Assembly: GCA_039683575.1 (NCBI GenBank)
Contig: JBDKRC010000182.1
Location: forward strand, 1-29,333
Direction of reading: 5' to 3'
DNA from: Armatimonadia bacterium
Lineage (GTDB): Bacteria > Armatimonadota > Zipacnadia > Zipacnadales > UBA11051
DNA: 29,333 bases
Numbering within the stretch: the stretch's first letter is position 1; each line of letters opens with the position of its first letter. Below, in pieces: positions 3,199 through 19,936 of the stretch. A program made the position numbers and the translations under genes. The notes below the pieces were generated by a model that saw only the letters and a program-made list of their open reading frames with translations, was not told the origin of the DNA and ran no database searches.

Positions 3199-3204
3199 GC
3201 CAAC

Positions 3205-3962: not shown

Positions 3963-3987
3963 TCCATTCAACCCCTTCGGAGCCTTC

Positions 3988-6516
3988 ATGAACGCAAAGT
4001 CACTATTGGAATCCCTCACCTTCAGCCGCCGCTATGGCGGGCAGGTCGAGCGCGTCGTCGAACTGCCCGCGCGCCCGGCGCAGTTTGGGGAGCTCTCCGA
4101 GCCCCTGAAGCTGCCCGTGCAGGCCGCGCTGGCCAATGCCGGGATCACCGACCTCTATACCCACCAGGTCTCTGCCATAGAAGAGGTTCGGCAGGGGCGC
4201 AGCATCGTGATTGTGACCGGGACGGCCAGTGGCAAGACGCTTTGCTACAATATTCCGGTGATCGAGGCCATCCTCGACGACCCGCTGGCGACTGCCCTCT
4301 TCGTCTACCCCACCAAGGCCCTCGCGCAGGATCAGTTGCGGGGCTTGGATCGTTTCAACGATGGGGCGGGCGGGACGCCCGCACTACGCGAGGAAGGCGG
4401 GCGGGACGCCGCCGCTACGCGGTGTGGGATCAACTTCATCGCCGGAACCTATGACGGCGACACGCCTGCGCCGCAGCGGCGGAAGCTGCGGGACAATGGG
4501 CAGGTGATCCTCACCAACCCCGACATGCTTCACCAGGCGATCCTGCCGCACCACTCCCGCTGGAGCAAGTATTTCTCGAACCTCAAGTACGTGGTCCTTG
4601 ATGAGGTCCACGCCTACCGCGGCGTCTTCGGGTCGCACCTGTCCAACGTCATGCGGCGGCTGCAGCGCATTTGCGAGCACTATGGCGCCTCGCCCCAGTT
4701 CATCTGCTGCTCGGCTACCATCGCCAACCCCGTCGAACACGCCTCTCGCATCGTAGGCCATGAAATGGCCCTCGTGGACGACGACGGCTCGCCGCGTGGC
4801 CCGAAGCGCTTCGTGCTGTGGAACCCGCCCATGGTCGGCGGCCCGGACTCGTCTCAGCCCTCCCCGGCCGGAGAGCGCCGTGGGCCCCTGGGTGAGGCCA
4901 TTGACCTCATGACGGCGCTGGTGCGGGAGAATGTGCAGACGATTGCCTTCGTGCGTACCCGTTTGGCCGCCGAGCTGATCTCACGCGGCGCGCGGGACAA
5001 CCTCGGGCTGGTCTCGCCACGCTTCGTAGAGAGGATTCAGGCCTATCGCGGCGGCTATCTGCCCGAGGAACGCCGTGAAATCGAGCGCCGCCTCGCCTCC
5101 GGCGACATTCTCGGCGTGGCCAGCACCAACGCCCTCGAACTGGGCATCGACATCGGCAGCCTCGATGCCTGCCTGATGGTTGGCTATCCCGGCACCATCG
5201 CCAGCGCCTGGCAGCAGGCCGGGCGGGCCGGGCGTGGGGCCGAGGAGGCCCTGATCTTCCTCATCGGCGACAACGCCCCCATAGATCAGTACCTGATGAA
5301 CCACTCGGACTATCTCTTCGACCAGAACCCCGAGAACGCCGTCGTTGACCCCAACAACCCCCACGTGGCCATCGGGCACATCAAGAGCGCGGCCTATGAG
5401 CTGCCCATCCCCGACGCCGAAGTGGACAGGTTCGGCGACTACGCCCTGCCGATGCTGGAGATTCTCGAAGAGCAGGAGCTGGTCAAGCACCTGCGCGGCA
5501 AGTGGTACTGGTCCAACGAAGAGTACCCCGCCGCCACGGTCAATCTGCGCAACATCGGCGGTCCCGTCTACAACATCATCGCCGCCACCGAGAACAACCG
5601 CGTCATCGGGACCATGGACGAGGTCAGCGCCTTCAGCCAGCTTCACAAGCACGCAGTGTACCTGCACGACGCGCAGAGCTACCTCGTGACTGATCTGGAC
5701 ACCGAGAACGCCATCGCCTACGTGGAAAAGCGCGACCTCGACTACTACACCCAGGCGATCACGAGCAGCCGCCTGCAGATCGAGGAGAAGGAAGAGGAAG
5801 CGCAGTGGCGCGAGTGTACGGTCGGTCTGGGCGCGGTGACGGTTACCACGACCATACCGATGTTCAAGAAGGTCAAGTACCACTCCCGCGACAGCCTGGG
5901 CTTCGAGCAGCTTGAGCTACCGCCCCAGATTCTCGAAACGATCTCCCTCTGGCTGGTACCGCCACAGGCGTGTCTCGAAGAGGTACGCCACCACAAGCTC
6001 GTGATGGCCGAGGGCCTCATCGGGATCGCCAACTGTCTCGTCGAAGTCGCCCCGATGTTCGTTATGTGTGACGTGCAGGACGTGGGCGTGGTCGTTGATG
6101 CCAGCAACCTCGGCCAGGACGCCCTCTTTCTCTATGACCGCTACCCCGGAGGCATGGGCTTCTCCGAGCGCTGCGCCGATCAGATGGAGGACCTAATACG
6201 GGCCGTGCACGAGGTCATCTCCAAGTGCCCCTGCACCGACGGCTGCCCGTCATGCGTCGGCGCGGCCCTGCCCGCCTTCGCCCTGAGTGACATAGACAGT
6301 GGCACGCGCGGCCGCATTCCCGACAAGCAGGCCGCGCTGGTCATTACCCACCAGTTACTCGGCCTGGAGCCGTACGTGCCGCGGCGGCGCGAGGACGTGG
6401 TTGAGATGGACCCGGAGCCGGAGGCTGAGAAGGCCACGGAGGAGACGGAGGCCATAGAGCCGAAGCTGCCGCTGGACTTGCGAAAGCGCCTGTCGGAACT
6501 ACGCCGCAAGGAATAG
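3988..6516 (+). CDS. DEAD/DEAH-box SF2 helicase with C-terminal DUF1998 Zn domain (YprA/MrfA family), paralog 2
   Basis: Motifs LYTHQ, TGTASGKT, PTKALAQDQ, YDGDT, TNPDMLH, DEVH, SAT, STNALELGIDIG, QQAGRAGR; FVMCD...CPCTDGCPSC. RBS GGAG upstream. Confidence 0.95.
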   Translation: MNAKSLLESLTFSRRYGGQVERVVELPARPAQFGELSEPLKLPVQAALANAGITDLYTHQVSAIEEVRQGRSIVIVTGTASGKTLCYNIPVIEAILDDPLATALFVYPTKALAQDQLRGLDRFNDGAGGTPALREEGGRDAAATRCGINFIAGTYDGDTPAPQRRKLRDNGQVILTNPDMLHQAILPHHSRWSKYFSNLKYVVLDEVHAYRGVFGSHLSNVMRRLQRICEHYGASPQFICCSATIANPVEHASRIVGHEMALVDDDGSPRGPKRFVLWNPPMVGGPDSSQPSPAGERRGPLGEAIDLMTALVRENVQTIAFVRTRLAAELISRGARDNLGLVSPRFVERIQAYRGGYLPEERREIERRLASGDILGVASTNALELGIDIGSLDACLMVGYPGTIASAWQQAGRAGRGAEEALIFLIGDNAPIDQYLMNHSDYLFDQNPENAVVDPNNPHVAIGHIKSAAYELPIPDAEVDRFGDYALPMLEILEEQELVKHLRGKWYWSNEEYPAATVNLRNIGGPVYNIIAATENNRVIGTMDEVSAFSQLHKHAVYLHDAQSYLVTDLDTENAIAYVEKRDLDYYTQAITSSRLQIEEKEEEAQWRECTVGLGAVTVTTTIPMFKKVKYHSRDSLGFEQLELPPQILETISLWLVPPQACLEEVRHHKLVMAEGLIGIANCLVEVAPMFVMCDVQDVGVVVDASNLGQDALFLYDRYPGGMGFSERCADQMEDLIRAVHEVISKCPCTDGCPSCVGAALPAFALSDIDSGTRGRIPDKQAALVITHQLLGLEPYVPRRREDVVEMDPEPEAEKATEETEAIEPKLPLDLRKRLSELRRKE
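4365..4421 (-). repeat. Two tandem GTAG-type REP-like hairpins inside the helicase 2 CDS
   Basis: 26-bp direct repeats ggcgggcgggacgcc-cgca-ctacgcg (4365-4390) and ggcgggcgggacgcc-gccg-ctacgcg (4396-4421). Minus strand reads GTAG followed by a GC-rich hairpin. Confidence 0.7.
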
Positions 6517-6518
6517 CT

Positions 6519-8708
6519 TCAGTTCGCCAGTTCGGCCACTTCGCACCGCGCAATGATCTCGTCCTGCAGCGGACGCCCGAGGTGCGTGAAGTCGGCGCTA
6601 TAGCCCGCCACGCGGACCATCAGCCCTGCGTGGTCTTCCGGGTGCTCCTGGGCCGCGAGCAAGGTCTCGCGGTCCAACACGTTTATCTGCAATTGGCTGC
6701 CGCCGAGGCTGACGAAGGTACGGATCAGGGAGATTACCTTGGCGCGGCTCTCCGCGTCGGCGAAGTCCGCGGGGAGCAGCCTGAGAGTCGAGACATTTCC
6801 GGCGATCAGCCGCGAATGGTCGAGGCGGCACAGGGAGCGGATGACGCCCGTCGGACCAGCCGTGGTGACGCCCTGTGATCCGGCGAGGGAGTCGGCGAGC
6901 GTCTCGCCCGCCCGGCGGCCGTCGAGTGTCGGCCCCATGATCTGCCCGTAGCACAGGTGCATGTTCTCTCCGCCTGCCAAATGCCCCAGTACGAGCGCCT
7001 CCCGCAGCGGCGTGCTGCGCTGCTCCAGCAGGCGCGACATCAGGTCAACCAGCCTCCCGGCGATCTCGTCCACGCTTTCATGGCCCGTTCCGAAGCGCGG
7101 CAGCTTGCGCAGGTGGCAAATGAGCGCGTCGTCTCCCGCGTCAAGGCCTTCGAGCAGGCCCGGCAGCGATTCCTGCCCCTCAAAGACGAGTTGGCGGGCG
7201 GCGTAAAGCATGTCCGCGGAGTTCGGTAGTCCGATGGCTTCCCAGTGCCCGAAATAGCTATCAGCCCCGCCATGGACGAGGTCGCGGCAACTGTCGAGGC
7301 AACAGGGCATGAAGAGACAGGCGTTATACGCCGGATCAACCCTCGCCTCATCCACGTAGGTGTTGCACACCCGGCAGGTCTCCGCCAGTTCCTCCGCCCG
7401 CCTCTCGATGATCTGCCACAGTAGCTCTTCAGTCGGCTCAGGAGCCTGCGCCAGCTCACGGATGGCATCGTCAATGAGCAGCGCCAGATTGATCCACCCG
7501 TTCGGCGCGCCCCAGTTGCCTTTCCCTGGCAAAACCACCTCTGTACACCCGCTCAAGGCATAGTCGCGCGCTCCCTCGAGCGGCACCCCTATTCGCGTCA
7601 GGCCCTCGAGAATCGGCTTATCTCCATAGAAGTTGGGCTCCGACAAACCCTCCCCCAGCATCTCGACCGCCAGTTCCAGCACGTCTTGCGGCGTCCCCTC
7701 ATGCAGGCGCACATAGATCGTGGGCCGCAGCAGCCGCACCGACCGGATCGCTTGCAGGAACAGGCGCGTGAGGTCATTTGTGGCGTCGGAACCGTCGGGA
7801 AGCACGCCACCGAGGGTCAGCGTGTGGATTGAGCTGACGTTGTAAACGCCCTCTGCATAGTCGCCGTGGAGCTTGATGAGTAGACACTCGATCAGCTCCT
7901 GCGCCTGCTCGGGGGTGATGCGTCCCGCCTGCAGGTCCGCCTGATAGAAGTCCCAGAGGTACACGTCGGGCCGCCCAACGCCATCCCCAGCGACCATGTA
8001 GGCGAACCAGAGGCTCTGCAGGGCTTCATGGAAAGTCTCGGCGGGGTGGGCGGGGACTTTGCGGCAGATCTCGGCCAGAGACCGCAACTCCTCCGCACGC
8101 CCAGGGTCAGCCGTCTCGGCCAGCCGGAGACACTCGGTCGCATAGCCATGGGCGAAGCGGATGAGCGCCAGATGCCCCAGTTCCATGGCGAGGGCAAAGT
8201 CGCGCTCGTGGCCGCTGTGGGCCTCCGCTGCCTCCCGCGCCCGCTGTGCCCACTGTCGCGACCCGGTCCGGATGAACCCGGCGTAGTCTACGACCTTGTG
8301 GTTCAGTGACCCCTGCGGCGACAGCAGCCCCCGCTCGGCCTGCGCGCGGATATCCGCCCGGTCAGGCGGAGTGTTGGCGGCAAAGCCCGCCGCATAGTTG
8401 CGCTGGCCGTCGGGAAACCAGGCAATGATCTCGGCGGCCTCAGCATCACGGCGTTTCGCGCCGACAATCAGCTCGTCCTCGCGAATCAGCGGGGTCAGGC
8501 GCGGGAAGACTTCTGAGAAGGTCTCCGCGTTGGCGCGAACGGTGTCTGGGGCGGTGGACTGGTACTGCTGGCTCAGTTCGCGATACTCGGTGAAGGGGGT
8601 ATAGAGGCGCGCGAGGACCTCCGCAGCCAGGCGGGCGGTGCGAACCGTAGACCCGCGGGGCCTAGAGGGCGTTGGGACACACGCATTCAGGGACGGATCG
8701 GCAGACAT
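6519..8708 (-). CDS. Glycyl radical enzyme (pyruvate formate-lyase superfamily), substrate unknown
   Basis: C-terminal glycyl loop LMVRVAGYSADF; Cys loop YALSGCTE; PAETFHEALQSLWF; DGRRAGETLADS; GGSQLQINV. Start chosen at ATG 8708, which has a GAGGA RBS (729 aa). Confidence 0.9.
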   Translation of the reverse strand: MSADPSLNACVPTPSRPRGSTVRTARLAAEVLARLYTPFTEYRELSQQYQSTAPDTVRANAETFSEVFPRLTPLIREDELIVGAKRRDAEAAEIIAWFPDGQRNYAAGFAANTPPDRADIRAQAERGLLSPQGSLNHKVVDYAGFIRTGSRQWAQRAREAAEAHSGHERDFALAMELGHLALIRFAHGYATECLRLAETADPGRAEELRSLAEICRKVPAHPAETFHEALQSLWFAYMVAGDGVGRPDVYLWDFYQADLQAGRITPEQAQELIECLLIKLHGDYAEGVYNVSSIHTLTLGGVLPDGSDATNDLTRLFLQAIRSVRLLRPTIYVRLHEGTPQDVLELAVEMLGEGLSEPNFYGDKPILEGLTRIGVPLEGARDYALSGCTEVVLPGKGNWGAPNGWINLALLIDDAIRELAQAPEPTEELLWQIIERRAEELAETCRVCNTYVDEARVDPAYNACLFMPCCLDSCRDLVHGGADSYFGHWEAIGLPNSADMLYAARQLVFEGQESLPGLLEGLDAGDDALICHLRKLPRFGTGHESVDEIAGRLVDLMSRLLEQRSTPLREALVLGHLAGGENMHLCYGQIMGPTLDGRRAGETLADSLAGSQGVTTAGPTGVIRSLCRLDHSRLIAGNVSTLRLLPADFADAESRAKVISLIRTFVSLGGSQLQINVLDRETLLAAQEHPEDHAGLMVRVAGYSADFTHLGRPLQDEIIARCEVAELAN

Positions 8709-9199: not shown

Positions 9200-11517
9200 T
9201 TCCCCGCCCCCCGCTGGTTCGCTGCTTCCCACATTCCCTTCTGCTCCTCGCTGATAGCCGTCGTGCATTGCTCGAAGACGTTCCCACGGCTCAGGATCGG
9301 CGAAGGCTGGCCGAGACGGTCCAGATACAGGCCCAGGGCTACCGAGTTTGGCTGGTCGAAGCTGCTGAAGGTGTTGCCCTGCAGGTTGAACTGTCCGCGC
9401 ACCGCCACAGCCTCCTTCACCCCGGTCGCTTCGCCCCGCGCAATCGTGTTGTCGCTGAAGGAGGAGGTCACGCTGCCGTAGCTGTCCAGCACGACCGGAA
9501 TCGAGCATCCGGCGACGGTGTTGTGGTGCAGGTTCCAGTTGGCCCCGCTCGCCGGGTATAGCTCGAAAGTATCCCCGGCCTTCATCGCACGGGGCTCGCG
9601 CAGCTTGAACTGGCACGTCACCGGATCACAGCCCTCCAGCACCGACTGCCCCAAAGCCTTCCCTGAGGCCAACCAGACCAGGTTCCAGCCTCGGTAGTCA
9701 TTGCCGGGGGCGCGGCCGACCGGCACCCCGCTCCACCCTGGCAGCGTGAAAGTCCGGTCATCAATAACCTCATTGACCCTTGATTGCGCCCGCGCCGTCA
9801 CCACCCCCTGCCCGCAGTTACGGATCAGGTTGTCATGCACGTTCACATTCACCGCCGGCTCGGCCAGCTTGATCCCCGTCACTGTCGGCTCCGCCGCGCC
9901 GCGCACGTAGATCTGGTTGTTGCAGATAGTGGTGTCATTGGCGCTGGCGCTGATGCCCCACCGCGGAACGGGCGTCTCGCCCACGCACGTCAGGTCAATG
10001 ATGTTACCGCTGATGATGCTGTTGGCCGACGGGTAATGCCGGTCGTCGCACCGTCCGCTGACCTCGATCGCAGGCGCGTTGAAGTTCACAAAGATGTTGT
10101 CGCGGATGATGACCTGCGTGGAGCCATACGAACTCACGATCATCGTGTTGCCTGGCTTGCCGCCGTAGCGCGTGCCGCCCTCGAAGACGTTGTCGGCAAT
10201 GATGTGCTGCCCCGCGCCCAGCGTGGGGAAGGTGTCATCGTGGTTCGGCGGCCCGAGATTGCCCATGGCGACCGTGCCGGAGTTGCGCACGTAGTTGCCG
10301 ACAAAGTGCATGAACCGCGACGCGCCCTCCCACGCACACCCGCCCACGTCCACAATGCGGCAGTAGAGCACGCTTGTGTTCTCCGGGCCGCAGTTCCAGT
10401 CGTTGAAGCCGTTGCGCCCACAGTCGACCGCCGAACAGCGCAGGTACGTCGTGGACTTGGTGTTCGTGCGGGGCGGCTTGGCCCCACGAGTAGCGCCGCC
10501 GGACACGAAGGCCTCCTGCGACATCCGCCGCGCGTGGCAATTCTCGACCAGCACCCGCTCGGTATCGGCCAGTGCAGTCGCGCCCGAGGTCTTCATGTAG
10601 AAGCCCCACAGCCCCCGCCCGCCGAGAGTGTTCATGTACCCGGCCTGATCGGCATTCTCAAGCCCCATGTGGCCGACCATGGTGATATTGCGCAGCGTAC
10701 ACTCCGTCCCGCCTGACATCGAAATGCACACCCCGTTGCCCTCGCTGATGTCCAGCACCACGTCCTGCGGGTTCGCGCCCTGTATCGTCAACCCCATTGG
10801 CTTGCGTGCCACTACTCCCTTGGCGAGGCAATAGTGCCCCGGCGGTATGTACAGGTTGCGCTGCTGCTTGATCGCCTCGTCAATCGCGGTCTGCAGCGCC
10901 GCGTCATCGGAATGCCGCACCACCGCATCATCGGCAGAGCGATTGGGGGTGTCCTTGAGCGTCAACACGTTCCCCTCGATCTTCTCGATGCGGCTCATAA
11001 GCTGATCGCGGGCGCTGAAGACGACGGTATAGCCGTCCTGCCAGTCAAACTTGCCGAACTTGATCTCGGTCCCGCCGCTGAGCTTGTGCCACTGATCGTC
11101 TATAAGGCCCCCCTCATGCCATGTGCGCCCAAAATCGTCGCTGTAGCGGAACTTGGCCGGGGTCGTCTGAGGGCAGTCCACCATGTACACGAACCAGCTA
11201 CCGGCGGAGCCGTCGTAGCCACGGAACTCAAGCTCGCCCTTGAGCGCCCGGTTGGATTCGTAGATCTTCCGCGGTCCCCATAGCCTTGGGCTGCTGTACT
11301 GGATGTTGCAGCGCGAGATCATCACGCCCTGACCAACCTTGAAGTCGCCCACATCCTTGACCGTGACCCGGTTCGATCCGGCGGTCGTGACCGCGCCCGT
11401 GGTGAAGGTCGACCCTGAGGCCCCGTAGTCGGCGGCGCTGAGCCATCCCGGCGGCGTTTGGGCCACAGCGGCCCCGGCGAGCATTAGCAGCGCGACAGCG
11501 GCGATGATCCTGTTCAT
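9196..11517 (-). CDS. Secreted right-handed parallel beta-helix protein (pectin-lyase-like fold)
   Basis: Signal peptide MNRIIAAVALLMLAGAAVAQ; SAADYGASG; DDAALQTAIDEA...LYIPPGHY (Pectate_lyase_3-like); repeated IxxN-type coils (IIADNVF, IIRDNIF, IISGNII, VHDNLI). Confidence 0.8.
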   Translation of the reverse strand: MNRIIAAVALLMLAGAAVAQTPPGWLSAADYGASGSTFTTGAVTTAGSNRVTVKDVGDFKVGQGVMISRCNIQYSSPRLWGPRKIYESNRALKGELEFRGYDGSAGSWFVYMVDCPQTTPAKFRYSDDFGRTWHEGGLIDDQWHKLSGGTEIKFGKFDWQDGYTVVFSARDQLMSRIEKIEGNVLTLKDTPNRSADDAVVRHSDDAALQTAIDEAIKQQRNLYIPPGHYCLAKGVVARKPMGLTIQGANPQDVVLDISEGNGVCISMSGGTECTLRNITMVGHMGLENADQAGYMNTLGGRGLWGFYMKTSGATALADTERVLVENCHARRMSQEAFVSGGATRGAKPPRTNTKSTTYLRCSAVDCGRNGFNDWNCGPENTSVLYCRIVDVGGCAWEGASRFMHFVGNYVRNSGTVAMGNLGPPNHDDTFPTLGAGQHIIADNVFEGGTRYGGKPGNTMIVSSYGSTQVIIRDNIFVNFNAPAIEVSGRCDDRHYPSANSIISGNIIDLTCVGETPVPRWGISASANDTTICNNQIYVRGAAEPTVTGIKLAEPAVNVNVHDNLIRNCGQGVVTARAQSRVNEVIDDRTFTLPGWSGVPVGRAPGNDYRGWNLVWLASGKALGQSVLEGCDPVTCQFKLREPRAMKAGDTFELYPASGANWNLHHNTVAGCSIPVVLDSYGSVTSSFSDNTIARGEATGVKEAVAVRGQFNLQGNTFSSFDQPNSVALGLYLDRLGQPSPILSRGNVFEQCTTAISEEQKGMWEAANQRGAGK

Positions 11518-11592
11518 CACACCCACCCTGTTCAGCTTGATGTGCAGTAGTTCACTGCCACAACAACGCAGACCTGCCACGGAGGATTCCTT

Positions 11593-12510
11593 GTGCCCTG
11601 GTACGAAGGCTATGACATGACAGATCCCACCTCCAAAGAGATAGTACGCCACGCCTGGGAGCATGGCACCGCCATCCCCAGTTTCAATGTCCCCTACCTG
11701 CCCATGATGGAACCAATCATCCGCGCCCTGCGGGATGCCGGGGTCATGGGCCAGGTCTCAGTGGCACGCGTGGACTGGACGCGCTTTGAAGCCGACAGCC
11801 CCAAGGCCGTCGCCGAAGAGTACCAACGCCTCAAGGACCCCGCCTGCGTCAGGTTGCACCTGGACCACGTGCCCGTCATTGACGAGGACAACGAACTGGT
11901 GGACTATGACGAGATTCTGTCGGAGGCGCTGGAACTGGGGTATGATTCCGTGATGGTGGACGGCTCCCGGCTCCCCTTGGACGAGAACATTGAGGTCACC
12001 CGTCAGGTTGTCGCCATGGCTCGCCAGACCGGAGCCGCAGTGGAGGCGGAACTGGGGGCGGTGCTGGGCCATGAGGCCGGGCCGCTGCCGGACTATGAGG
12101 AGCTATTCACCTCCGGCAGGGGCTTCACCGACCCCGGCGAGGCGCGGCGGTTTGTGCAGGAAACGGGCGTAGACTGGCTCTCCGTGGCTGTGGGCAACAT
12201 TCACGGTGCGGTGAGCGGGGCGGCCAAGAGCCAGAAGAAGGTCGAGGCCCGGCTGAACCTCGAACACCTCGCCCGCCTGCGGGAGGCCGCGGGGGTGCCG
12301 CTCGTGCTGCATGGCGGATCGGGGATCAAGGACGAGTGCATCGTGGCAGGTATCAAGGCCGGCATAGCGAAGATAAACGTCGCCACGGCGATCCGCCAGC
12401 CCTACGAGCAGGGCCTGCAGCAGTCGGTGCAGGCCGGGCAGGAGCGGGTCTACGAGGCGGTTACAGAGGTACTCAAACACATGGTTCACCTTGAACCATT
12501 CCGTGCATGA
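11593..12510 (+). CDS. Class II fructose/tagatose-bisphosphate aldolase family protein
   Basis: Motifs LHLDH, SVMVDGS, VEAELG, GNIHG, LVLHGGSG, KINVAT. GGAGG RBS before GTG 11593. Confidence 0.92.
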   Translation: MPWYEGYDMTDPTSKEIVRHAWEHGTAIPSFNVPYLPMMEPIIRALRDAGVMGQVSVARVDWTRFEADSPKAVAEEYQRLKDPACVRLHLDHVPVIDEDNELVDYDEILSEALELGYDSVMVDGSRLPLDENIEVTRQVVAMARQTGAAVEAELGAVLGHEAGPLPDYEELFTSGRGFTDPGEARRFVQETGVDWLSVAVGNIHGAVSGAAKSQKKVEARLNLEHLARLREAAGVPLVLHGGSGIKDECIVAGIKAGIAKINVATAIRQPYEQGLQQSVQAGQERVYEAVTEVLKHMVHLEPFRA

Positions 12511-12527
12511 TCATGAGGAGGACTACA

Positions 12528-13934
12528 ATGTCAGTACAGAAGACAACTTTCGCGGTATTTTTCGGCAATCGCGCGTTTTTCCCCGGTTCGCTGATGGCCG
12601 CGGCGCGAGAGGAATTGCAGAAGGTCCTGACCGGGCTCGGCCATGAGGTTCTCATGCTCGACGCCGAGGCTACCAAGTTCGGCGCAGTGCAGAGCCCGCG
12701 CGAGGGCGAGGTTTACGCCAACTTCCTGCGCAAGAACCAGGGCAAGTTCGGCGGCGTCATCCTGAGCCTGCCCAACTTCGGCGACGAGACCGGCGCCATC
12801 GCCGCGCTCAAGGACTGCGGCGTGCCAATCCTCATCCAGGCGTACCCTGACGAACTCGACAAGATGGCCCCCGCGACCCGCCGGGACAGCTTCTGCGGCA
12901 AGTTCTCGATCATGGACGTGTTCTTTCAGTATGGCCTGAAGTTCACGATCCTCCCGCCGCACACCGTCTCCCCCTCGTCGCCCAGGTTCGCCGAGCAGAT
13001 TGACTTCTTCGACCGCGTCTGCCGCGTGTACAACGGCATGAAGGGCATGACCGTCGGAGCCATCGGCGCCCGCACCACCGCTTTCAAGACCGTCCGCATT
13101 GATGAACTGGCCTTGCAGCGGCACAACATCACGATGGAGACCCTGGACCTGTCCGACGTCTTCCTGCGCGTGAGCAAGGTCCGCACCAGCACCAACAAGT
13201 ACAAGGAGAAGGCCGAACGGTTGCAGGCGTACACCTCCTGGGAGGGCGTGCCGGAAGAGGTCTTCCCCAAGCTCGTCCGCCTCGGCGTGGCGCTCGATGA
13301 CATTGTGGAAGAGTACCAGATGGACGCCCTGGCCCTCCGCTGCTGGGAGGAACTGCAGCGGCAACTCGGCGTTTCGCCCTGCGTGCTCCTGAGCGAGATG
13401 AATGACCGCGGCGTGGTAACGGCCTGTGAGGTGGACATGGGCAACGCAGTGACGATGTTCGCCCTGCGCCAGGCCTCCGGCAACGTCGTGACGTGTCTCG
13501 ACTGGAACAACAACTATGCCGACGAGGATGACAAGTGCATCCTGTTCCACTGCGGGCCGGTGCCACAGGCCATGATGACCGCGCGTGGGCGGATCACCGA
13601 GCACATGATCCTGCGCAACACGCTGGGCGAGGGCTGCTCGTTCGGCTGCAACGTAGGCCGCATCAAGCCCGGCGAAGTGACCTTCGGCAGCATGCTGACC
13701 GAGGAGGGCAAGCTGAAGTACTACCTCGGCGAGGGCGCCTTCACGGACGACCCGATCCCGGCAGACTTCTTCGGCTGCGCGGGCGTGGTAGAGATCCCGA
13801 ACCTGCAGGACGCGCTAGTAAAGATAGGCTACGCCGGCCACCGCCACCACACGAGCGTAACGCCCGGCAAGGTAGCCGCGCCGGTGATTGAGGCGATGGA
13901 GAAGTATCTGGGGTATGAGGTTATGAAGGTGTAG
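12528..13934 (+). CDS. L-fucose/L-arabinose isomerase family protein
   Basis: LPNFGDE, RRDSFCGKFS, ALRCW, ACEVD, LDWNNNY, LFHCG, HRHH. RBS GAGGAGG before ATG 12528. Confidence 0.85.
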   Translation: MSVQKTTFAVFFGNRAFFPGSLMAAAREELQKVLTGLGHEVLMLDAEATKFGAVQSPREGEVYANFLRKNQGKFGGVILSLPNFGDETGAIAALKDCGVPILIQAYPDELDKMAPATRRDSFCGKFSIMDVFFQYGLKFTILPPHTVSPSSPRFAEQIDFFDRVCRVYNGMKGMTVGAIGARTTAFKTVRIDELALQRHNITMETLDLSDVFLRVSKVRTSTNKYKEKAERLQAYTSWEGVPEEVFPKLVRLGVALDDIVEEYQMDALALRCWEELQRQLGVSPCVLLSEMNDRGVVTACEVDMGNAVTMFALRQASGNVVTCLDWNNNYADEDDKCILFHCGPVPQAMMTARGRITEHMILRNTLGEGCSFGCNVGRIKPGEVTFGSMLTEEGKLKYYLGEGAFTDDPIPADFFGCAGVVEIPNLQDALVKIGYAGHRHHTSVTPGKVAAPVIEAMEKYLGYEVMKV

Positions 13935-13941
13935 GGGGGCG

Positions 13942-13962
13942 GGGAATCGGGAATCGGGAATC
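13942..13962. repeat. Heptamer tandem repeat (GGGAATC)x3
   Basis: Three exact copies directly after the isomerase stop codon. Confidence 0.85.
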
Positions 13963-13970
13963 GGGGACGA

Positions 13971-14057
13971 CAGGCCCGAAGGGCCGTCAGCAGCTAGCCG
14001 GGGCCGCGAGGCCCCGGTTTGAGGGCGCGGTGAGGTAGAGCCCCGAAGGGGCGATAG
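13971..14057 (-). repeat. Three-hairpin palindromic repeat, family A (diverged inverted copy A0)
   Basis: Reverse complement reads ctatcgccccttcggggctc...ccggggcctcgcggccccggctagctgctgacggcccttcgggcctg, matching the three hairpins of A1 and A3 with a different linker. Confidence 0.8.
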
Positions 14058-14075
14058 ATAGAGCAGGGGGAAGAT

Positions 14076-14762
14076 GTGAGGCCATCCATACGGGGCCGGA
14101 AATCGACAAATCGCCATTGGGTTTGGGTGGCTCCACTGGCCACGGCCAGCGTAGTCGCGGTCATGATCTGGTTGGCGCCAATGGTGCATCCCCAACGGGC
14201 CTTCCATTGGGAGCTACGGCTTCTGAAAGCTCGCATTGCGGTTGAGCCAGACGCAAACCGGAGAGCGGAGCTTCTGTGTGACGCCGCTATCTACCACTCG
14301 GTGATAGGACGGGCGGAGGAGTCTCAAGATGATCGCGATGAGGCCCCGCTGTTTGCGCGGCAGGCATCTGAGATTGCATCAGAGACGGAGACGCGCCTGA
14401 GGGCGGCACGAGCATGGGTTAGGTTTGAGGAACAGGCGCATGGCCCGGCCGCCGGACAGCGAGCGTTTGAGAGTGTGTTTCAGGAGTACCCCGAAGCCAG
14501 AGGCGATAGCGCGCTGAGAGCCCGGTACATGGCGACGCTCCTAAAGACCGGCAATGAGCGGCAGGTCTTGAGGATATTCGCCGACGAGTTCATGGGATCA
14601 GCCGCACGCATGGGCTCGGTCCACAGCGAGGACGCCGTGCGGGCCGCGGCGCAGGCGGCGCGGAGGCTGCATGGGGAGGCGGCGAGCAGGGCATTGCTTG
14701 GGGACGTGATCAAGCGGTGGCCGAAGAGTCGAGGCGCCAGCACGGCGAGGGAGTTGCTGTAG
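14076..14762 (+). CDS. Hypothetical membrane-anchored alpha-helical (TPR-like) protein
   Basis: N-terminal hydrophobic segment WVWVAPLATASVVAVMIWLAP; TPR-like FESVFQEYPEA and DVIKRWPKSRGASTARELL. Confidence 0.65.
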   Translation: MRPSIRGRKSTNRHWVWVAPLATASVVAVMIWLAPMVHPQRAFHWELRLLKARIAVEPDANRRAELLCDAAIYHSVIGRAEESQDDRDEAPLFARQASEIASETETRLRAARAWVRFEEQAHGPAAGQRAFESVFQEYPEARGDSALRARYMATLLKTGNERQVLRIFADEFMGSAARMGSVHSEDAVRAAAQAARRLHGEAASRALLGDVIKRWPKSRGASTARELL

Positions 14763-14767
14763 GGTTG

Positions 14768-14862
14768 CTGCCGCCCCTTCGGGGCTCAAGATGGTTGGGT
14801 GCGGGTGGTCCCGGGGCTTGCGCCCCGGGCTAGGGGCTGGTCGGCCCGTTGGGCCTGAGGGG
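14768..14862 (+). repeat. Family A repeat, copy A1 (95 bp)
   Basis: 93/95 identical to 16772-16866. Hairpins GCCCC-TTC-GGGGC, CCCGGGGC-TTGC-GCCCCGGG, GGCCC-GTT-GGGCC. Confidence 0.92.
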
Positions 14863-14919
14863 GAAGAAGGCGGGGCCTGATAAGGAAGACGAAGGCGAAG
14901 TTGACGAGAGGGACTATGC

Positions 14920-15642
14920 ATGGCAACCGGATCAGCAGGTCAAATTGGCCACGTCCGGCGCGTCCAATGGATTGCGATAGCTATCGCCATTGTGGCTGCG
15001 GTGTGTTTTGTGGTCACCGTTCTATTCGGGTGGGGCGTCATCCGTTTTCTGCCCGGCCACATCGCGTTGACTAAGTCGACGCACTACATGATGCGCATGA
15101 GTGGCTGCCAGGCACTTGGCGAGTATCGCAATCATCCGCAAGTTGATCACATCGCAGAGGTATTGGAGGGCTGCCTAGACGACGAAAGCGACGTGGTTAG
15201 GGTGTCCGCCGTTGGCTCGCTGGAGCAGTTAGACCATCGGTCAAGCACCGGCGTGCTGCTTGCACGCGTGGATGACAGCAGCCGTTTCGTGAGCATGCGG
15301 GTGCGGGAGACCCTGGCACGATGGCAGGTCCCGGAACTGCAGAAGCTACTGCTGGATCGCCTGAACGCCGCCAGCGCCAGCGACGATGATCTTGTGGATG
15401 CGGGAAGGCTCCTCGGGTACTATCACACACCGGAAGCGTTTCAGGCCCTGAAGCGTGTATTAGGCCACAAGGATGATCTGGTGGCCGGGTGTGCAATAAC
15501 CGGATTGTCGGAGTATGACACGCCGGAAGCGTGGCAGCTGATCGAGAAGTCGGCGAAGCGGGATGATCTGGTGGGGCAGAGCGCACGAAGAGCGATTGAG
15601 GAGCGCAACAGAGGCGGGGACGACAGCGCCGGTGGTCGGTGA
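14920..15642 (+). CDS. HEAT-repeat protein with N-terminal transmembrane helix
   Basis: TM segment WIAIAIAIVAAVCFVVTVLFGWG; HEAT-like units LDDESDVVRVSAVGSLEQL, VDDSSRFVSMRVRETLARW, LGHKDDLVAGCAITGLSEY. Confidence 0.75.
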   Translation: MATGSAGQIGHVRRVQWIAIAIAIVAAVCFVVTVLFGWGVIRFLPGHIALTKSTHYMMRMSGCQALGEYRNHPQVDHIAEVLEGCLDDESDVVRVSAVGSLEQLDHRSSTGVLLARVDDSSRFVSMRVRETLARWQVPELQKLLLDRLNAASASDDDLVDAGRLLGYYHTPEAFQALKRVLGHKDDLVAGCAITGLSEYDTPEAWQLIEKSAKRDDLVGQSARRAIEERNRGGDDSAGGR

Positions 15643-15644
15643 CT

Positions 15645-15680
15645 ATCGCGCTCTGGTGAGCGCTCCTACAGGCAGCCGGG
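15645..15680 (-). repeat. Family B repeat (GTAG-type REP), copy B1
   Basis: 36 bp identical to 17350-17385. Minus strand reads TGTAGGA-GCGCTC-ACCA-GAGCGC-GAT. Confidence 0.92.
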
Positions 15681-15740
15681 AGGGGAGATGAGGCCCTGAA
15701 CCTGTCAGGCAGACATGCATGGCTAGATGCAGTAATCCAA

Positions 15741-16094
15741 GTGTTGCCGGCGGCAGGCGTTGGTTTGGTGGTCTTTGCTGCGACGACTGCCCTATTCCGG
15801 GCTATGCTTCATCCTCCGATTCTTATCGCCGCCATGCTTGGAGTTTGCATATCCGCGGTGGTCGCTGGCAGTCTGTGCCCGCGGCGTGCTGTGACTGCCG
15901 GCGACCGCAATGCGCGAGCCTGGCTGGGGCAGTACGAGGTCGAATTGGCGGGCAAGGGAAACGCGGCGTTCTACCTCGACTTGCGCGACATCATGGATGG
16001 GCGGCAACTCCGCATGCCTCGCCTGCTCGGGGCCGTCAGGTTTGAGTCGGCAATAGACGAGGCTGATGCATCCGACACGATGGAAGCGGCCTGA
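15741..16094 (+). CDS. Hypothetical small membrane protein (2 TM)
   Basis: Two hydrophobic helices followed by a soluble tail; fills the space between repeats B1 and A2. The frame is open from 15660, so the true start may be further upstream. Confidence 0.5.
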   Translation: MLPAAGVGLVVFAATTALFRAMLHPPILIAAMLGVCISAVVAGSLCPRRAVTAGDRNARAWLGQYEVELAGKGNAAFYLDLRDIMDGRQLRMPRLLGAVRFESAIDEADASDTMEAA

Positions 16095-16099
16095 GACAG

Positions 16100-16132
16100 T
16101 GCTGCCGCCCCTTCGGGGCTCAAGATGGTTGG
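16100..16132 (+). repeat. Family A repeat, truncated copy A2
   Basis: 33 bp identical to 14766-14798 (tgctgccgccccttcggggctcaagatggttgg); similarity then stops. Confidence 0.88.
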
Positions 16133-16174
16133 CAGCGAGAGGCGTCAGGAACCGCGTGGCTCGGGGGATAAACG

Positions 16175-16735
16175 ATGCCTCACCGAAGCGATGCCATCCT
16201 CATGATCGTCATTGGTGCCATACCCTTGGCCGCCGCGTTGGCGGTACTGGTGTGGTCACTTGTCAGGCCGAAGCGTTCTCGGCGCCGATGGATACCTTGG
16301 CTCGTGATCTGTCTTCTGGCAGCGCTGGGAGCTTGTCTGTTACTGGAGGGTGTTGGGCGTCTGCTTTACCTATCTGGAGATTCGCGGGCCGCAGCTGCGC
16401 GAATCTTCCGCACAGCCGCTTTCCTACCTGCAGGATTGTTCGTTTTCGGGTACCAGATGTCCACTAAGCGTCGGAATCAGATGTCCCTTCTCGTTGCTGG
16501 CATGGTTGTGGCGCTGATGCTGCTGCAGGTTGCCCTGACCGTGCTGGGGCAACTATCACCGGGCACTTCTCGCGTACTCTATGCCGCCGAGATAATCGGC
16601 ATGTGGTATGCCTGTGGCATGCCGAAGCCGCTCCCATTCATCTGGTCAGGGACCGAAGAGACGGCTCGCGACCACAGGCGACGAAGGCGGAGACAGCGGC
16701 CTGACGAGGACTCGGCCGATGGCGACAAGACCTGA
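16175..16735 (+). CDS. Hypothetical integral membrane protein (about 5 TM)
   Basis: Multiple hydrophobic segments separated by Arg/Lys-rich loops; GGGGG/GGA RBS-like stretch upstream. Confidence 0.65.
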   Translation: MPHRSDAILMIVIGAIPLAAALAVLVWSLVRPKRSRRRWIPWLVICLLAALGACLLLEGVGRLLYLSGDSRAAAARIFRTAAFLPAGLFVFGYQMSTKRRNQMSLLVAGMVVALMLLQVALTVLGQLSPGTSRVLYAAEIIGMWYACGMPKPLPFIWSGTEETARDHRRRRRRQRPDEDSADGDKT

Positions 16736-16771
16736 CGACACGCCAACGCGGGAATGGCTGTCGGCTCGTAT

Positions 16772-16866
16772 CTGCCGCCCCTTCGGGGCTCAAGATGGTT
16801 CGGTGCGGGTGGTCCCGGGGCTTGCGCCCCGGGCTAGAGGCTGGTCGGCCCGTTGGGCCTGAGGGG
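16772..16866 (+). repeat. Family A repeat, copy A3 (95 bp)
   Basis: 93/95 identical to A1. Confidence 0.92.
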
Positions 16867-16891
16867 AGGGGACCGCGGCGGCGGTTGAGGC

Positions 16892-17341
16892 GTGAAGCCA
16901 TCGGAGGGGGACACAGAAGTGGAAAGACGAAGAAACTGCGCGGGCTGTCTCATCCTCATCGCAGTCGGGATTCTGCTTGTTGCGGATCCGTTCCATATCG
17001 TGCTGGGTCTGCGGTGGGGTAATGAGCCGTTCGATCAAGCGCAGTGGAAGGCCGCGGCCCGTCGCGAGAAGCCTGTGCAGCCCAACCCGAGGGGCAAAAT
17101 GCTGGCCTCTCTGCTGCGTCAGCACAAGCTCAAGGGCATGGCAGAGGCGGAGACAAGTGGTCTCCTGGGTTGGCCGGATGAGGTTGATTTTCTTCGGAAG
17201 CGTACTGCAAGTCCCAAGGCCTTCGAGGAGTGGGACTACTATCTGGGAATGAACAGCAGTACTGGTGTTGATGAGGACATTCTTGTGATCGAGTTTGACC
17301 GTAGCGGATCGGTCATTCGGTACTTCACCTACAACACCTGA
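16892..17341 (+). CDS. Hypothetical membrane-anchored protein, SmpA/OmlA (BamE)-like domain
   Basis: N-terminal TM; FDQAQWK...RGKMLASLL...LKGMAEAETSGLLGWPD...WDYYLG...LVIEFDRSGSV pattern. Confidence 0.65.
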   Translation: MKPSEGDTEVERRRNCAGCLILIAVGILLVADPFHIVLGLRWGNEPFDQAQWKAAARREKPVQPNPRGKMLASLLRQHKLKGMAEAETSGLLGWPDEVDFLRKRTASPKAFEEWDYYLGMNSSTGVDEDILVIEFDRSGSVIRYFTYNT

Positions 17342-17349
17342 GCCGTCGG

Positions 17350-17385
17350 ATCGCGCTCTGGTGAGCGCTCCTACAGGCAGCCGGG
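17350..17385 (-). repeat. Family B repeat (GTAG-type REP), copy B2
   Basis: Identical to B1. Confidence 0.92.
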
Positions 17386-17443
17386 GCGGGCTCCACAGCG
17401 ATAATGGACACTAAGTTTGAATAGGATTAGCGAGGTAAAACGG

Positions 17444-18532
17444 ATGAGTACCATCAAAATCGGCGTACTAGGCGCGGGGCGGGGCGTTAGTTTGGCTAAG
17501 GCTACTAAGTATGCCCCCAGCGCGCAGCTTTGGGCTATTTGTGATGCCAATGAGGAACGGCTGGCCGGGGCGGCTCAGGCTACCGGGGTCGAGAAGACCT
17601 TTACCTCCTTTGAGGCGCTGCTGGATTCGGAGGTGGATGCCGTGGTCGTGGCCTCGCCCATGCCGCTGCATGTGGAGCATTGCGTGCAGGTGCTCAAGGC
17701 CGGGAAGCATGTGATGAGCGAAGTCACCGCCGCGACCACCATGGACCAGTGCTGGGAGCTGCTGGAGACCGTGCGCAATAGCGGTAAGAAGTACATGATG
17801 GCCGAGAATTATTGCTGGTACCGGCCGTGGTCCATCGTCATGGGGATGGTCAAGGCCGGGATCTTCGGCGAGATCTATTATGGCGAGTCCGAGCAGCTTC
17901 AGGAGTTCGCCGCCGCGCTGCCGCCGCTTAGCGTGCAGTACAACTGGCGCACCGCTGAACTGGCGATGCGGCTGGGGCACCACTACATCACCCACGACCT
18001 CGGGCCGCTGTACTGGGCGTGCGGCGAGCGGGTTGCGCAGGTGACCTGCCAGGGGTCCGGGCAGCGGCACACGGACTGGGCAGTGGCCGACAGCACCTGC
18101 ACAGTGCTGCTCGAGACCGTGACAGGCAAGCAGATTCGGATCAGGCTGGACTTCTTCTCCCACCGGCCCAACAACTACACGTACTATGGGCTGCAGGGGA
18201 TCAATGCGTGCTATGAGGGGCCGCGGGCGCCGGGGGAGGAGCACCGCATCTACGTCAACGGCCAGACCGAGCGCGGGACTTGGGAGAGTTTGTGGAACTA
18301 TAAGGAGTACCTGTCCGACGGCTGGAAGAACCTGCCCGAGGAGGCCATCAGCGACACCTACGACGGCGGCGCGCCCCTGATGATGGAGGAGTTCGCGCGG
18401 TGCATCATTGACGACACCAAGCCGCCGGTGGACGTGGTGGACGCGCTGAACCTCACGGCACCGGGGCTGATGAGCGAGGTGTCGCGCAGCAAGGGCGGGT
18501 GCCCGGTGGAAGTGCCGGAGTTTGTGTTGTAG
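17444..18532 (+). CDS. Gfo/Idh/MocA family oxidoreductase
   Basis: IKIGVLGAGRG Rossmann start, DAVVVASPMPLH, GKHVMSEV, YMMAENY, YITHDLGP. GAGG RBS before ATG 17444. Confidence 0.9.
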   Translation: MSTIKIGVLGAGRGVSLAKATKYAPSAQLWAICDANEERLAGAAQATGVEKTFTSFEALLDSEVDAVVVASPMPLHVEHCVQVLKAGKHVMSEVTAATTMDQCWELLETVRNSGKKYMMAENYCWYRPWSIVMGMVKAGIFGEIYYGESEQLQEFAAALPPLSVQYNWRTAELAMRLGHHYITHDLGPLYWACGERVAQVTCQGSGQRHTDWAVADSTCTVLLETVTGKQIRIRLDFFSHRPNNYTYYGLQGINACYEGPRAPGEEHRIYVNGQTERGTWESLWNYKEYLSDGWKNLPEEAISDTYDGGAPLMMEEFARCIIDDTKPPVDVVDALNLTAPGLMSEVSRSKGGCPVEVPEFVL

Positions 18533-18563
18533 AGGCGACGGCGGAGATTGGGAATCGGGAATC

Positions 18564-18594
18564 AGGGCGGCGGGAATGGTCCCGCCGCCCTTTT
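18564..18594 (+). terminator. Rho-independent terminator preceded by GGGAATC heptamers
   Basis: 12-bp stem AGGGCGGCGGGA / TCCCGCCGCCCT, ATGG loop, TTTT tail; (GGGAATC)x2 at 18550-18563. Confidence 0.8.
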
Positions 18595-18646
18595 CGTCTG
18601 TGGAAGGCAGAGCGCTGCGTGTGCTTCCACCCAGCGCGCTCAGCGT

Positions 18647-19936
18647 CTAGGGAGTGGCCGGAGTGTACTTGTATGCCCCAAGGTCTATCGGCTGCACCCG
18701 TTTGCTGCCCTCGAGGTCGTACAGCATGTAGTTATTGATCCAGACGCCCCGGCGGATACACGGGCTGTTGCCGAGCAGGTGGTAGTTGCCCCCGCTGTAG
18801 GACACAAAGCGTGGGTTCACGACGATTGAACTCGCCGCGAGCGGATACACACCGCCCGCCATGTCTACCGCACGCCACTGCTTGTCGAAACCGAGGTAGA
18901 ACATCCACCCGCGCCCCCCGACGAAGTAGCAGTTGTTGCTATCGGAGTACATGACCGGCTTCTTAACCCACACCGGGTTGAGGAAGAAGATGCAGTTGCG
19001 GACGCTGACGCTGGCAGGGCTCGACGACTCCAGTTGCATCCCGTAGTACCCGTTGTTGGCCAGCGTGAGGTTCCACAGCTTCAGCTTGTTACCCACCGCG
19101 ATGACGCCATAGCCGCCGTTGTGGTGGCTCAAGGAGTTGCTAAGCTGGATGCCGTCACGCCAGAGCTTGAACCCGGCCTCCCAGTTGTTGAAGGCCCGGC
19201 AACGGTCGATCACCGTGCCGACGGGCTTCACGTCAAAGCCGGTATCGCCATGGCCGTAGGAGACGCAGCGGGAGATGGTGACCTTGGAGCAGGCGCCCTC
19301 AATGCTGAAACCGTCGCTGTACTCGTTTGTGTTGTTCGAGTTGTTGGCGGCGACGCAATCAGTAATGGACAGGCCCGCGAGGCTTTCGGCATCCCAGCCG
19401 AGCATGTACCCTTTGTAGTTGTCATGCACGTAACACTTGCGCAGGGCCACGTTACTGCCATTTTCGATCCACAGGCTACGATAGCTATCCTTGATCTCAC
19501 AGTCCGTGATGGTCACATTCTGGGCATTGGCCAGGTGAAGCCCATCGCCATCGCCGGAGTTGGCAATCACAAGCCCGGTCAACTGCAGGCCGGTTATGGG
19601 TAAGGTGGTGTCGAAGGCACACTCTTCGGTGCCGTCGCCTTCAATGATAGCCGCGCGCGACGTCGTGGCCTCGATTCTGACGTTGGCCACATTCACAAGT
19701 GGTTCGAGCTGAACGCGTTCCTTGTAACTACCTGGGTTGAGCTTCAGCACATCGCCTGCGGCGAGGCGGGTGATCGCATAGTTGATGGTACCAAAGGGTT
19801 GGGCATCGGTGCCGAGGTTCGTATCGGCACCAACGGGGCTTACGTAGTATGTGGAAGCCATTGCCGCTGGCACCGCGCCAAGCAGCAACGCAGAAGCTAT
19901 CAGGACGCCGAAGCGCCCGACTCTGTACCGAGCCAT
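18647..19936 (-). CDS. Secreted right-handed beta-helix protein (DUF1565 / PL9-like N-terminus)
   Basis: Signal peptide; TYYVSPVGADTNLGTDAQPFGTI...AGDVLKLNPGSYKE; beta-helix coils; C-terminal NPRFV...YHLLGNSPCI...DLGAY. Confidence 0.82.
   Translation of the reverse strand: MARYRVGRFGVLIASALLLGAVPAAMASTYYVSPVGADTNLGTDAQPFGTINYAITRLAAGDVLKLNPGSYKERVQLEPLVNVANVRIEATTSRAAIIEGDGTEECAFDTTLPITGLQLTGLVIANSGDGDGLHLANAQNVTITDCEIKDSYRSLWIENGSNVALRKCYVHDNYKGYMLGWDAESLAGLSITDCVAANNSNNTNEYSDGFSIEGACSKVTISRCVSYGHGDTGFDVKPVGTVIDRCRAFNNWEAGFKLWRDGIQLSNSLSHHNGGYGVIAVGNKLKLWNLTLANNGYYGMQLESSSPASVSVRNCIFFLNPVWVKKPVMYSDSNNCYFVGGRGWMFYLGFDKQWRAVDMAGGVYPLAASSIVVNPRFVSYSGGNYHLLGNSPCIRRGVWINNYMLYDLEGSKRVQPIDLGAYKYTPATP

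Follow-up and report, generated by a model that had tools for sequence, protein, structure and literature searches.

Is a row of five unrelated membrane-protein genes, each closed by a palindromic repeat, a site at which genes are captured and shuffled, or does its regular layout have a more ordinary origin? The question is raised by positions 13935–17416 of a 29,333-nucleotide stretch of DNA (hereafter the window), contig C182 (JBDKRC010000182.1) of the 6.23-Mb, 352-contig, 96% complete genome of an Armatimonadia bacterium. An earlier note, made from the letters of the window, had proposed a gene-capture or shuffling locus delimited by repetitive extragenic palindromic (REP) hairpins and driven in trans. 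Parts of that proposal stand: the hairpins are of the REP type, a Y1 transposase gene exists in the genome, and gene content varies between strains at the repeats. Against it, the REPs follow ordinary genes genome-wide, no second array of the kind was seen, and no integron integrase (IntI) was found. In our best explanation, to which we give a probability of roughly 0.55, the locus is a strain-variable islet of orphan membrane-protein genes inside a REP cluster, in which the REPs are the junctions of insertions and deletions.

The interval carries, in order, A0, g1, A1, g2, B1, g3, A2, g4, A3, g5 and B2, with all five genes (g1–g5) on the forward strand. A0 (13970–14057, reverse strand) is a full, inverted REP module of family A, with hairpins c′, b′ and a′, and is the left arm of a REPIN (REP doublet forming a hairpin), the inverted REP doublet of passages in Bertels and Rainey (2011, PMC3337134). 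The right arm is the complete module A1 (14766–14862, hairpins a-b-c), and the 709-nt loop between the arms is occupied by g1 (14076–14762). Then follow, all on the forward strand, g2 (14920–15642), B1 (15645–15685), g3 (15741–16094), A2 (16100–16142), which is truncated to hairpin a and a 12-nt linker, g4 (16175–16735), the complete module A3 (16770–16866), g5 (16892–17341) and B2 (17350–17390); members of REP family B consist of one GC hairpin and a conserved tail. This is the layout that the earlier note had described, down to strand and coordinates, and the repeat does begin within 2–36 nt of each stop codon (3–5, 2, 5, 34–36 and 8 nt after g1 to g5, respectively). The reported identity of A1 and A3, 93 of 95 positions, was reproduced (14768–14862 against 16772–16866). 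B1 and B2, described as identical, are so over 36 nt but match at 39 of 41 positions over the full copies. A2 shares only its first hairpin with A1 (33 nt identical), and A0, with a fold z of −3.4, is about 78% identical to other A copies. The impression of more A/T-ending codons also held, the G+C content at third codon positions (GC3) being 0.64–0.71 in g1–g5 against 0.85–0.88 in the flanking genes and a genome median of 0.80; the lowest codon score among the five is that of g4. As claimed, both flanks are sugar-metabolism genes on the forward strand, a sugar isomerase-like gene with a Pfam Fucose_iso_C domain on the left (12507–13934, GC3 0.88) and a Pfam GFO_IDH_MocA oxidoreductase on the right (17417–18532, likely ATG at 17444, GC3 0.85).

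Strain alleles and hairpin feet

Related strains carry alleles that lack genes of the islet, or have other DNA in their place, at the feet of the hairpins. We placed Logan contigs (k=31) from four other metagenomic sequencing runs of three studies, X1–X4, on positions 11500–19500 at a likeness of at least 88%; these are 4 of the 23 runs listed, and no run held half of the sampled words of the window. Parts of the window that lack contig cover in runs with no joint across them, and the habitats of runs sharing few words, were left out of the evidence. One X2 contig matches the 3′ end of the isomerase gene and A0 at 98% identity. In it, position 14054 is joined to 14768 with eight other letters between; g1 is absent, and A0 and A1 abut as a plain REPIN. 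In X3 (a 14.2-kb contig) and in X4, which comes from another study, 16127 meets 16821 across 22 other letters, the same ones in both, and a single A element, composed of hairpin a of A2 and hairpins b-c of A3, stands in place of A2, g4 and A3. Larger differences are also present. X3 has 1113 other letters in place of 14053–15897 (g1, A1, g2, B1 and the 5′ half of g3), and X2 joins 15902 to 17439, with about 234 intervening letters by record coordinates. A0 is present in contigs of X2, X3 and X4. Among the roughly seven breakpoints, four (14053/14054, 14768, 16127 and 16821) lie at hairpin feet or within A, in line with the predicted variation of gene content between strains with breakpoints at the repeats. 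The retained parts of the islet are close to identical between strains: X1 and X2 show 0–1 differences over 249–694 nt of g2 and g3, with flanks 91–98% identical, and X3 is 98% identical to the window in its islet pieces and 93% in its flanks.

Could the array and its variants be unreal, either because strain alleles were strung together through shared REP words in the genome assembly or because Logan contigs were misjoined at REPs? The assembly is in 352 contigs, 18 of the 90 A sites lie at contig ends, related strains are mixed in each of the four runs, and many records can be placed at two positions in the window. Set against this, the longest exact runs among the local repeat copies, 29–36 nt, are presumably short for the word sizes of common assemblers, the 14.2-kb X3 contig carries the 3′ half of g3, one A, g5, B2 and the oxidoreductase gene in series, the g4-less joint occurs with the same 22 extra letters in two studies, and the joints carry letters that come from neither side. 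Because of these extra letters, identical in two studies, we argue that the g1-less and g4-less alleles are real, and we regard an assembly artefact as very improbable.

One further feature of the variants lies inside a gene. Two of them break in g3 no more than 6 nt apart (15897–15902), where its two hydrophobic segments give way to the soluble tail. The 5′ part of the gene is retained in X1 and X2 and the 3′ part in X3, and g3 may be a recombinant of two cassettes.

Repeats A and B across the genome

Three rounds of nhmmer collected 90 A sites and 105 B sites in the genome. A is a module of about 90 nt with three GC-rich hairpins (a, b and c). By crude gene calls, made with codon log-odds trained on long open reading frames (4774 genes, 90% coding; the caller missed g4), 14 A sites and 24 B sites lie within called reading frames and the others are intergenic or at contig ends. 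With up to one mismatch allowed, hairpin a has 73 copies here, as opposed to 0–1 per genome in 15 others from the family. Compensatory changes are evident in hairpin b, where pair 45/60 is AT in 73 copies, CG in 7 and GC in 6, and pair 49/56 is CG in 68 and GC in 21. Plain head-to-head doublets number seven for A (loops of 5–16 nt) and eight for B (loops of 22–60 nt). A and B are REP-type hairpins, as the earlier note had it; they belong, as unexceptional members, to two REP/REPIN families spread over the genome, and are not recombination sites owned by the genes of the islet.

The genes that precede these repeats are ordinary as well. Taking genes whose 3′ end faces a REP, and leaving out the present locus, those upstream of A (n=51) have a median length of 347 aa and a GC3 of 0.80, with 24% shorter than 250 aa and 8% below a GC3 of 0.72; those upstream of B (n=61) have a median of 422 aa and a GC3 of 0.84, with 21% and 2% in the same classes. 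The corresponding genome values are 326 aa, 0.80, 35% and 10%. There is no genome-wide excess of short or low-GC3 genes upstream of either family. The earlier note had predicted that A and B would preferentially follow short orphan membrane-protein genes, and had named in advance the opposite outcome, which is what we find, as one that would count against its proposal. Because A and B stand after ordinary genes throughout the genome, the repeats are not cassette-specific. We also considered the REPs as intrinsic terminators and rejected the idea: none of five terminator-like matches lies in a REP, and the REP hairpins have no T tract.

Within its genome the locus is nevertheless exceptional. 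A or B occupies 100 of 4422 spacers genome-wide (2.3%) and six of six here; the run of occupied spacers is five by the crude calls and six with g4 counted, and the next longest run is two. REP density is higher at only one other locus, that of a Y1 transposase gene on contig C51. Outside the islet, a REP is found in none of 106 spacers between two low-GC3 genes, as opposed to 86 of 3617 between ordinary genes, and REPs therefore normally avoid foreign-looking DNA. Similarly, 17 of 19 runs of at least three low-GC3 genes contain no REP; this one contains six, and one other contains two, at its edge. Finally, the nine head-to-head A pairs include two with long loops, each filled by one tightly fitting gene, namely the C51 transposase gene (456 nt) and g1 (709 nt). 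Both genes have the same boundaries with respect to hairpins a′ and a.

These figures bear directly on an alternative in which the juxtaposition is a coincidence: a horizontally acquired islet was later colonised by REPs in its dispensable spacers, the REPs took no part in gene gain, and the strain differences arose by homologous recombination in the conserved flanks together with deletions between direct repeats. REPs do sit in intergenic DNA after genes everywhere in this genome. Moreover, the copy closest to A1 is A3 and vice versa (97.8% identical, with the next nearest genome copies at 89% for A1 and 89–90% for the pair), and other local pairs show the same relationship, so local duplication of REPs is common. 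Loss of g4 fits a crossover between hairpins a of A2 and A3, which stand in direct orientation, and small variable segments bounded by direct repeats are common in other species (PMC2884548). What this alternative explains poorly is why REPs should have colonised this islet when none of 106 low-GC3 spacers elsewhere and only 2 of 19 low-GC3 runs, this one included, hold any. It also meets the difficulty that recombination within the inverted pair A0/A1 is unable to take out g1, although one strain shows a properly formed REPIN at that place, and that the inner foot of A0 (14053/14054) is a breakpoint in two different variants. We consider such a coincidence unlikely, although less so than an artefact of assembly.

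Possible routes of gene gain and loss

The earlier note had predicted an HUH (Y1) transposase gene flanked by the same repeat elsewhere in the genome, and one is present. Among seven Pfam Y1_Tnp matches in the genome, the single-copy gene at C51 7065–7517 (150 aa) lies between A copies in inverted orientation (6973–7062, reverse strand; 7519–7609, forward strand). Its protein scores 86.9 bits against Pfam Y1_Tnp and 58.4 bits against NCBIfam transpos_IS200 (cut-off 55) but fails the NCBIfam model NF047646 (REP_Tyr_transpos) for REP-associated tyrosine transposases (RAYTs), at 19.8 bits against a cut-off of 80. The NP(L/V)(R/K)xG motif is absent from this protein and from its paralogue on C168. 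The C51 protein contains an HVH motif and a GYG..S stretch, which we take to be the HUH motif and the catalytic tyrosine. In its flanking layout the gene is RAYT-like, a position between two inverted REPs being the RAYT-defining arrangement in passages of Nunvar (2010, PMC2817692); by sequence, its product is classed as an IS200/IS605 TnpA. A diverged module, A′, follows the C168 paralogue, and a third hairpin family flanks the Y1 gene on C331. A scan of a genome collection with the C51 transposase gave a best identity of 46% and no close relative.

Two side observations concern these transposases. The four Y1_Tnp proteins encoded on C237, C102, C31 and C338 have an NPV(R/K)-type motif like that of classical RAYTs and are not flanked by A or B. 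At C51 5700–7820 (locus L002/L162), the transposase gene is surrounded by eight tandem units of about 200 bp, each made up of the final ~100 nt of that gene and a complete A. The idea that g1 is itself a decayed transposase was set aside, as comparisons of its DNA and protein with the C51 gene and the seven Y1 proteins gave nothing significant (best E 0.07–0.11).

We infer that REP hairpins act as junctions through which DNA enters and leaves the islet, and the following model would account for most of what is seen. A REP cluster, comprising a REPIN and further A and B copies, would already have existed downstream of the isomerase gene, between two conserved sugar-metabolism genes. Foreign, gene-sized DNA could then enter the cluster and be lost again; g1 would have been placed in the loop of the REPIN, and g4 between hairpin a and the remainder of an A element. 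The most likely route would be REP-to-REP recombination between strain alleles, with the REPs serving both as portable homology and as fragile hairpin sites, and nicking by the cognate Y1 transposase at the hairpin feet could contribute. Loss of g4 would be expected if the a-hairpins of A2 and A3, which are direct repeats, recombined. The g1 allele would require something more: exchange of the whole A0-g1-A1 segment through the arms, an event in the single-stranded loop of the REPIN, or shared descent from a transposase-bearing unit. According to this model, the one-gene-one-hairpin appearance would be a by-product of insertion into a REP cluster and not the work of a dedicated capture machine.

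Several points weigh against the REP-cluster model. First, it leaves the first origin of A0-g1-A1 unaccounted for and, because A0 and A1 are inverted, simple recombination between them cannot delete g1. Second, the further cassette-like arrays that one would expect were not found: we saw no second array of this kind in the genome, and six REP clusters in three relatives (G036, G029 and G017) are plain doublets between ordinary genes with no array. A general mechanism would therefore have to act very rarely. Third, some breakpoints lie off the repeats, namely 15897 and 15902 inside g3 and 17439 just before the start of the oxidoreductase gene. Fourth, the seven Y1_Tnp loci of the assembly include no RAYT for family B. 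Finally, Logan contigs are short and come from mixed strains, their k=31 joins can be wrong at repeats, and the window derives from a 352-contig assembly.

A more ambitious possibility is a dedicated capture device: the cognate Y1 transposase would work in trans, cleaving single-stranded DNA where the A (and B) hairpins have their feet and joining foreign, gene-sized DNA in at these points. Such a device would resemble an integron without an integrase and could stockpile envelope proteins such as immunity factors. Much of the local geometry is what it would produce. For example, g1 takes the very place in a REPIN that the transposase gene takes in its own, bounded in the same way by hairpins a′ and a, and in a related strain the REPIN at this site is uninterrupted; g1, g3, g4 and the transposase gene all end 5–36 nt before the same 10-nt foot of hairpin a. 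The avoidance of low-GC3 clusters by REPs elsewhere (none in 106 spacers) and the closer identity between strains of the islet pieces than of the flanks point the same way, as do the best fold match of g5 in the Protein Data Bank, a type VI secretion system (T6SS) immunity protein with a BamE-like fold (E 4.7e-3), and the existence in other bacteria of orphan immunity arrays with repetitive intergenic sequences, known as rAID-1 (10.1101/471110). By contrast, the locus is the only one of its kind among about 195 REP sites, with no counterpart in the six REP clusters of other genomes. REPs follow ordinary genes genome-wide, the transposase gene is neither nearby nor in the window, some breakpoints lie off the repeats, and g1–g5 have no paralogues or second copies in the genome. 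On balance we think a dedicated device improbable, if less so than a coincidence. The same doubt applies to its strongest formulation, that REPIN hairpins and a single-copy Y1 transposase make up a gene-cassette exchange system, precise at hairpin feet, that would be an HUH-based, single-strand analogue of the integron holding an array of envelope and possibly immunity genes.

Known systems share individual features with the locus. As in REP/BIME and REPIN–RAYT systems, there are short GC-rich extragenic palindromes in about 100 copies, with inverted doublets folding as long hairpins, species-specific sequences, compensatory stem changes and a single-copy Y1 gene between inverted copies. The unit here differs, however, in having three hairpins and an IS200-type transposase that lacks NP(L/V)(R/K)xG and fails the RAYT model; moreover, a non-transposase gene occupies a REPIN loop, and the REPs alternate with five orphan genes. 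IS200/IS605 elements and their palindrome-associated derivatives likewise have an HUH/Y1 TnpA of about 150 aa, subterminal hairpins and many copies without a transposase, whereas here a single module, in inverted copies, forms both flanks, the complete gene occurs once and the g1 unit has no second copy. As in an integron, one gene is followed by one folded palindrome on a single strand, the cargo is unrelated and its content varies between strains; unlike an integron, the locus has REPs that occur after ordinary genes genome-wide, two unrelated repeat families that alternate, and one arm that is inverted. Consistent with the earlier note, which had no integrase in view, a genome search for IntI found none (best TIGR02249 match 71 bits against a cut-off of 265). 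The recombinase-associated rAID-1 arrays of Bacteroidales share skewed composition, repetitive intergenic sequences and small unrelated genes, and the BamE-like fold of g5 recalls one T6SS immunity protein; here there are five genes only and no adjacent XerD-type recombinase in the window.

More broadly, the usual view of REPs and REPINs is of small non-coding passengers with effects on termination, mRNA stability or local recombination. They have been reported as targets of insertion sequences (PMC1525189) and as sites of local recombination (10.1101/2021.07.10.451892). In open-access text we found no description of a non-transposase gene in a REPIN loop or of REP-delimited arrays of orphan genes. 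Because a gene sits in the transposase slot, every spacer of the islet holds a REP and strains differ at hairpin feet, the locus makes a role of REPs and of their Y1 transposase in gene gain and loss directly testable.

Acido-Lenti-1, the five proteins and the flanks

The A module also overlaps a described RNA family. Rfam RF01687 (Acido-Lenti-1), a 46-nt model, matches hairpins b and c. On the reverse strand of A0, bases 13972–14017 score 40.6 bits, over the gathering cut-off of 37, and A3 and A1 fall below it at 29.1 and 26.2 bits. When 150 candidates from the genome were scored, 34 matched at E≤1e-3 and 22 exceeded the cut-off. The motif and the transposase also occur together. In a set of 41 genomes, the present one and 40 relatives, 12 have RF01687 and 13 a C51-like transposase (E≤1e-15); both are present in 12 and neither in 28, which places the transposase in 12 of 12 genomes with the motif and 1 of 29 without it. 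The relatives with the motif are G002, G003, G004, G017, G021, G024, G029, G031, G034, G036 and G038, and in the one transposase-only genome, G027, the transposase gene has an internal TGA. Counted by genus, eight have both, ten have neither and one has just the transposase; in no genus does the motif occur by itself. The Fisher value for genomes, 1.6e-9, is overstated, as kin are not independent. RF01687 at E≤0.01 lies inside 5 of 17 transposase loci scanned. Hairpin b of the REP occurs in 21 copies in G002 and 5 in G003, and no gene-sized loops were seen there apart from that of the transposase.

Acido-Lenti-1 was published as a probable small RNA (Weinberg 2010, PMC2864571, Table 1), and a 2026 preprint calls it abundant and of unknown function. 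In the RF01687 seed alignment, single genomes contribute several copies, and two of these lie 200 nt from each other. Among the listings under the name Acido-Lenti-1, the supplementary descriptions of PMC2864571 excepted, none links the motif to REPs. The model matches two of the three hairpins of a REP module that is associated with a Y1 transposase, and the motif accompanies such a transposase across genomes; this suggests that the Acido-Lenti-1 'small RNA' is part of a REP/REPIN DNA element. If so, a proposed small RNA would be reassigned as a piece of a mobile DNA repeat.

The five proteins of the islet are mutually unrelated, as had been claimed, with no BLASTP pair below E 7, and each has one or more N-terminal hydrophobic segments. 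No paralogue or second copy of any of them was found in the genome. The protein classes proposed in the earlier note fared unevenly. The HEAT assignment of g2, a membrane-anchored protein of 240 aa, is borne out by Pfam HEAT_2 (E 2e-17); g2 has one 75%-identical homologue in a large protein collection, and among the 66 other genomes of the order there are weak HEAT-level matches only. For g1, an orphan of 228 aa with an N-terminal hydrophobic anchor, a confident ESM Atlas model (predicted TM score 0.82) that falls with TPR clusters offers a lead towards a TPR-like protein. The orphans g3 (117 aa, with two hydrophobic segments followed by a soluble tail) and g4 (186 aa, with at least three hydrophobic segments) are, with g1, nearly or wholly without relatives in the order, g1 and g4 matching in none of the 66 other genomes and g3 giving a single chance-level match. 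NCBIfam gave no name to g1, g4 or g5, a HEAT-type match below the cut-off for g2 and a chance-level one for g3.

The remaining protein, g5, is membrane-anchored and has 149 aa, or probably 140 aa from a start at 16919. Homologues of 36–44% identity occur patchily in 8 of the 66 other genomes of the order, none of them in the same genus. It belongs to a large unnamed family, of which a profile finds 4168 cluster representatives at E≤1e-3, and a search for homologous proteins with g5, as with g3, returned only the window's own protein. The g5 model has a mean predicted local distance difference test score of 73.5, and its weak Foldseek matches to BamE chains (E 5e-3 to 0.2, target TM 0.45–0.60) are consistent with a BamE-like fold; Pfam gave no match to BamE or SmpA_OmlA at E≤0.1. 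A possible immunity or receptor role is suggested by the weak fold match to the T6SS immunity protein, and no known immunity family was found among g1–g5 in Pfam or NCBIfam. In other genera, g5 homologues (L050, L051 and L053; G011, G044 and G006) adjoin small low-GC3 genes whose products have hydrophobic N-termini, and the g5 family may usually be housed in small clusters of this type.

Beyond the islet, the isomerase is conserved in relatives at 63–82% amino-acid identity, with none of g1–g5 downstream of it. In the same-genus genomes G001–G003 it is 79–82% identical and is followed by a gene for a lipoprotein-like protein of about 310 aa, in place of the islet and the oxidoreductase gene; these genomes are too diverged and neither favour nor contradict capture. 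A metagenome scan with the isomerase reached 78% amino-acid identity at its best locus and yielded no same-species contigs. None of the 14 other open reading frames of the window that were scanned has a recombinase or transposase domain, and a third window copy of B (28302–28331, reverse strand) follows an ordinary gene of 1214 aa.

A tandem heptamer, (GGGAATC)n, lies directly 3′ of the stop codons of both flanking genes, at 13942–13965 (3.4 units, forward strand) and at 18550–18563. It occurs at 19 loci in the genome, mostly intergenic, one of which lies within 200 nt of a REP, and one strain contig has seven extra letters at 13948, in the tract next to the isomerase gene. A second variable spot lies at 18534–18723, where the 188 nt that separate the oxidoreductase gene from a convergent beta-helix gene are replaced in X3 by 1197 other letters; in the window this spacer holds a canonical hairpin-plus-T-tract terminator. 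Farther upstream, positions 323–6516 encode two tandem MrfA-like helicases (DEAD, Helicase_C and MZB domains), with a small HTH-nucleotidyltransferase gene between them.

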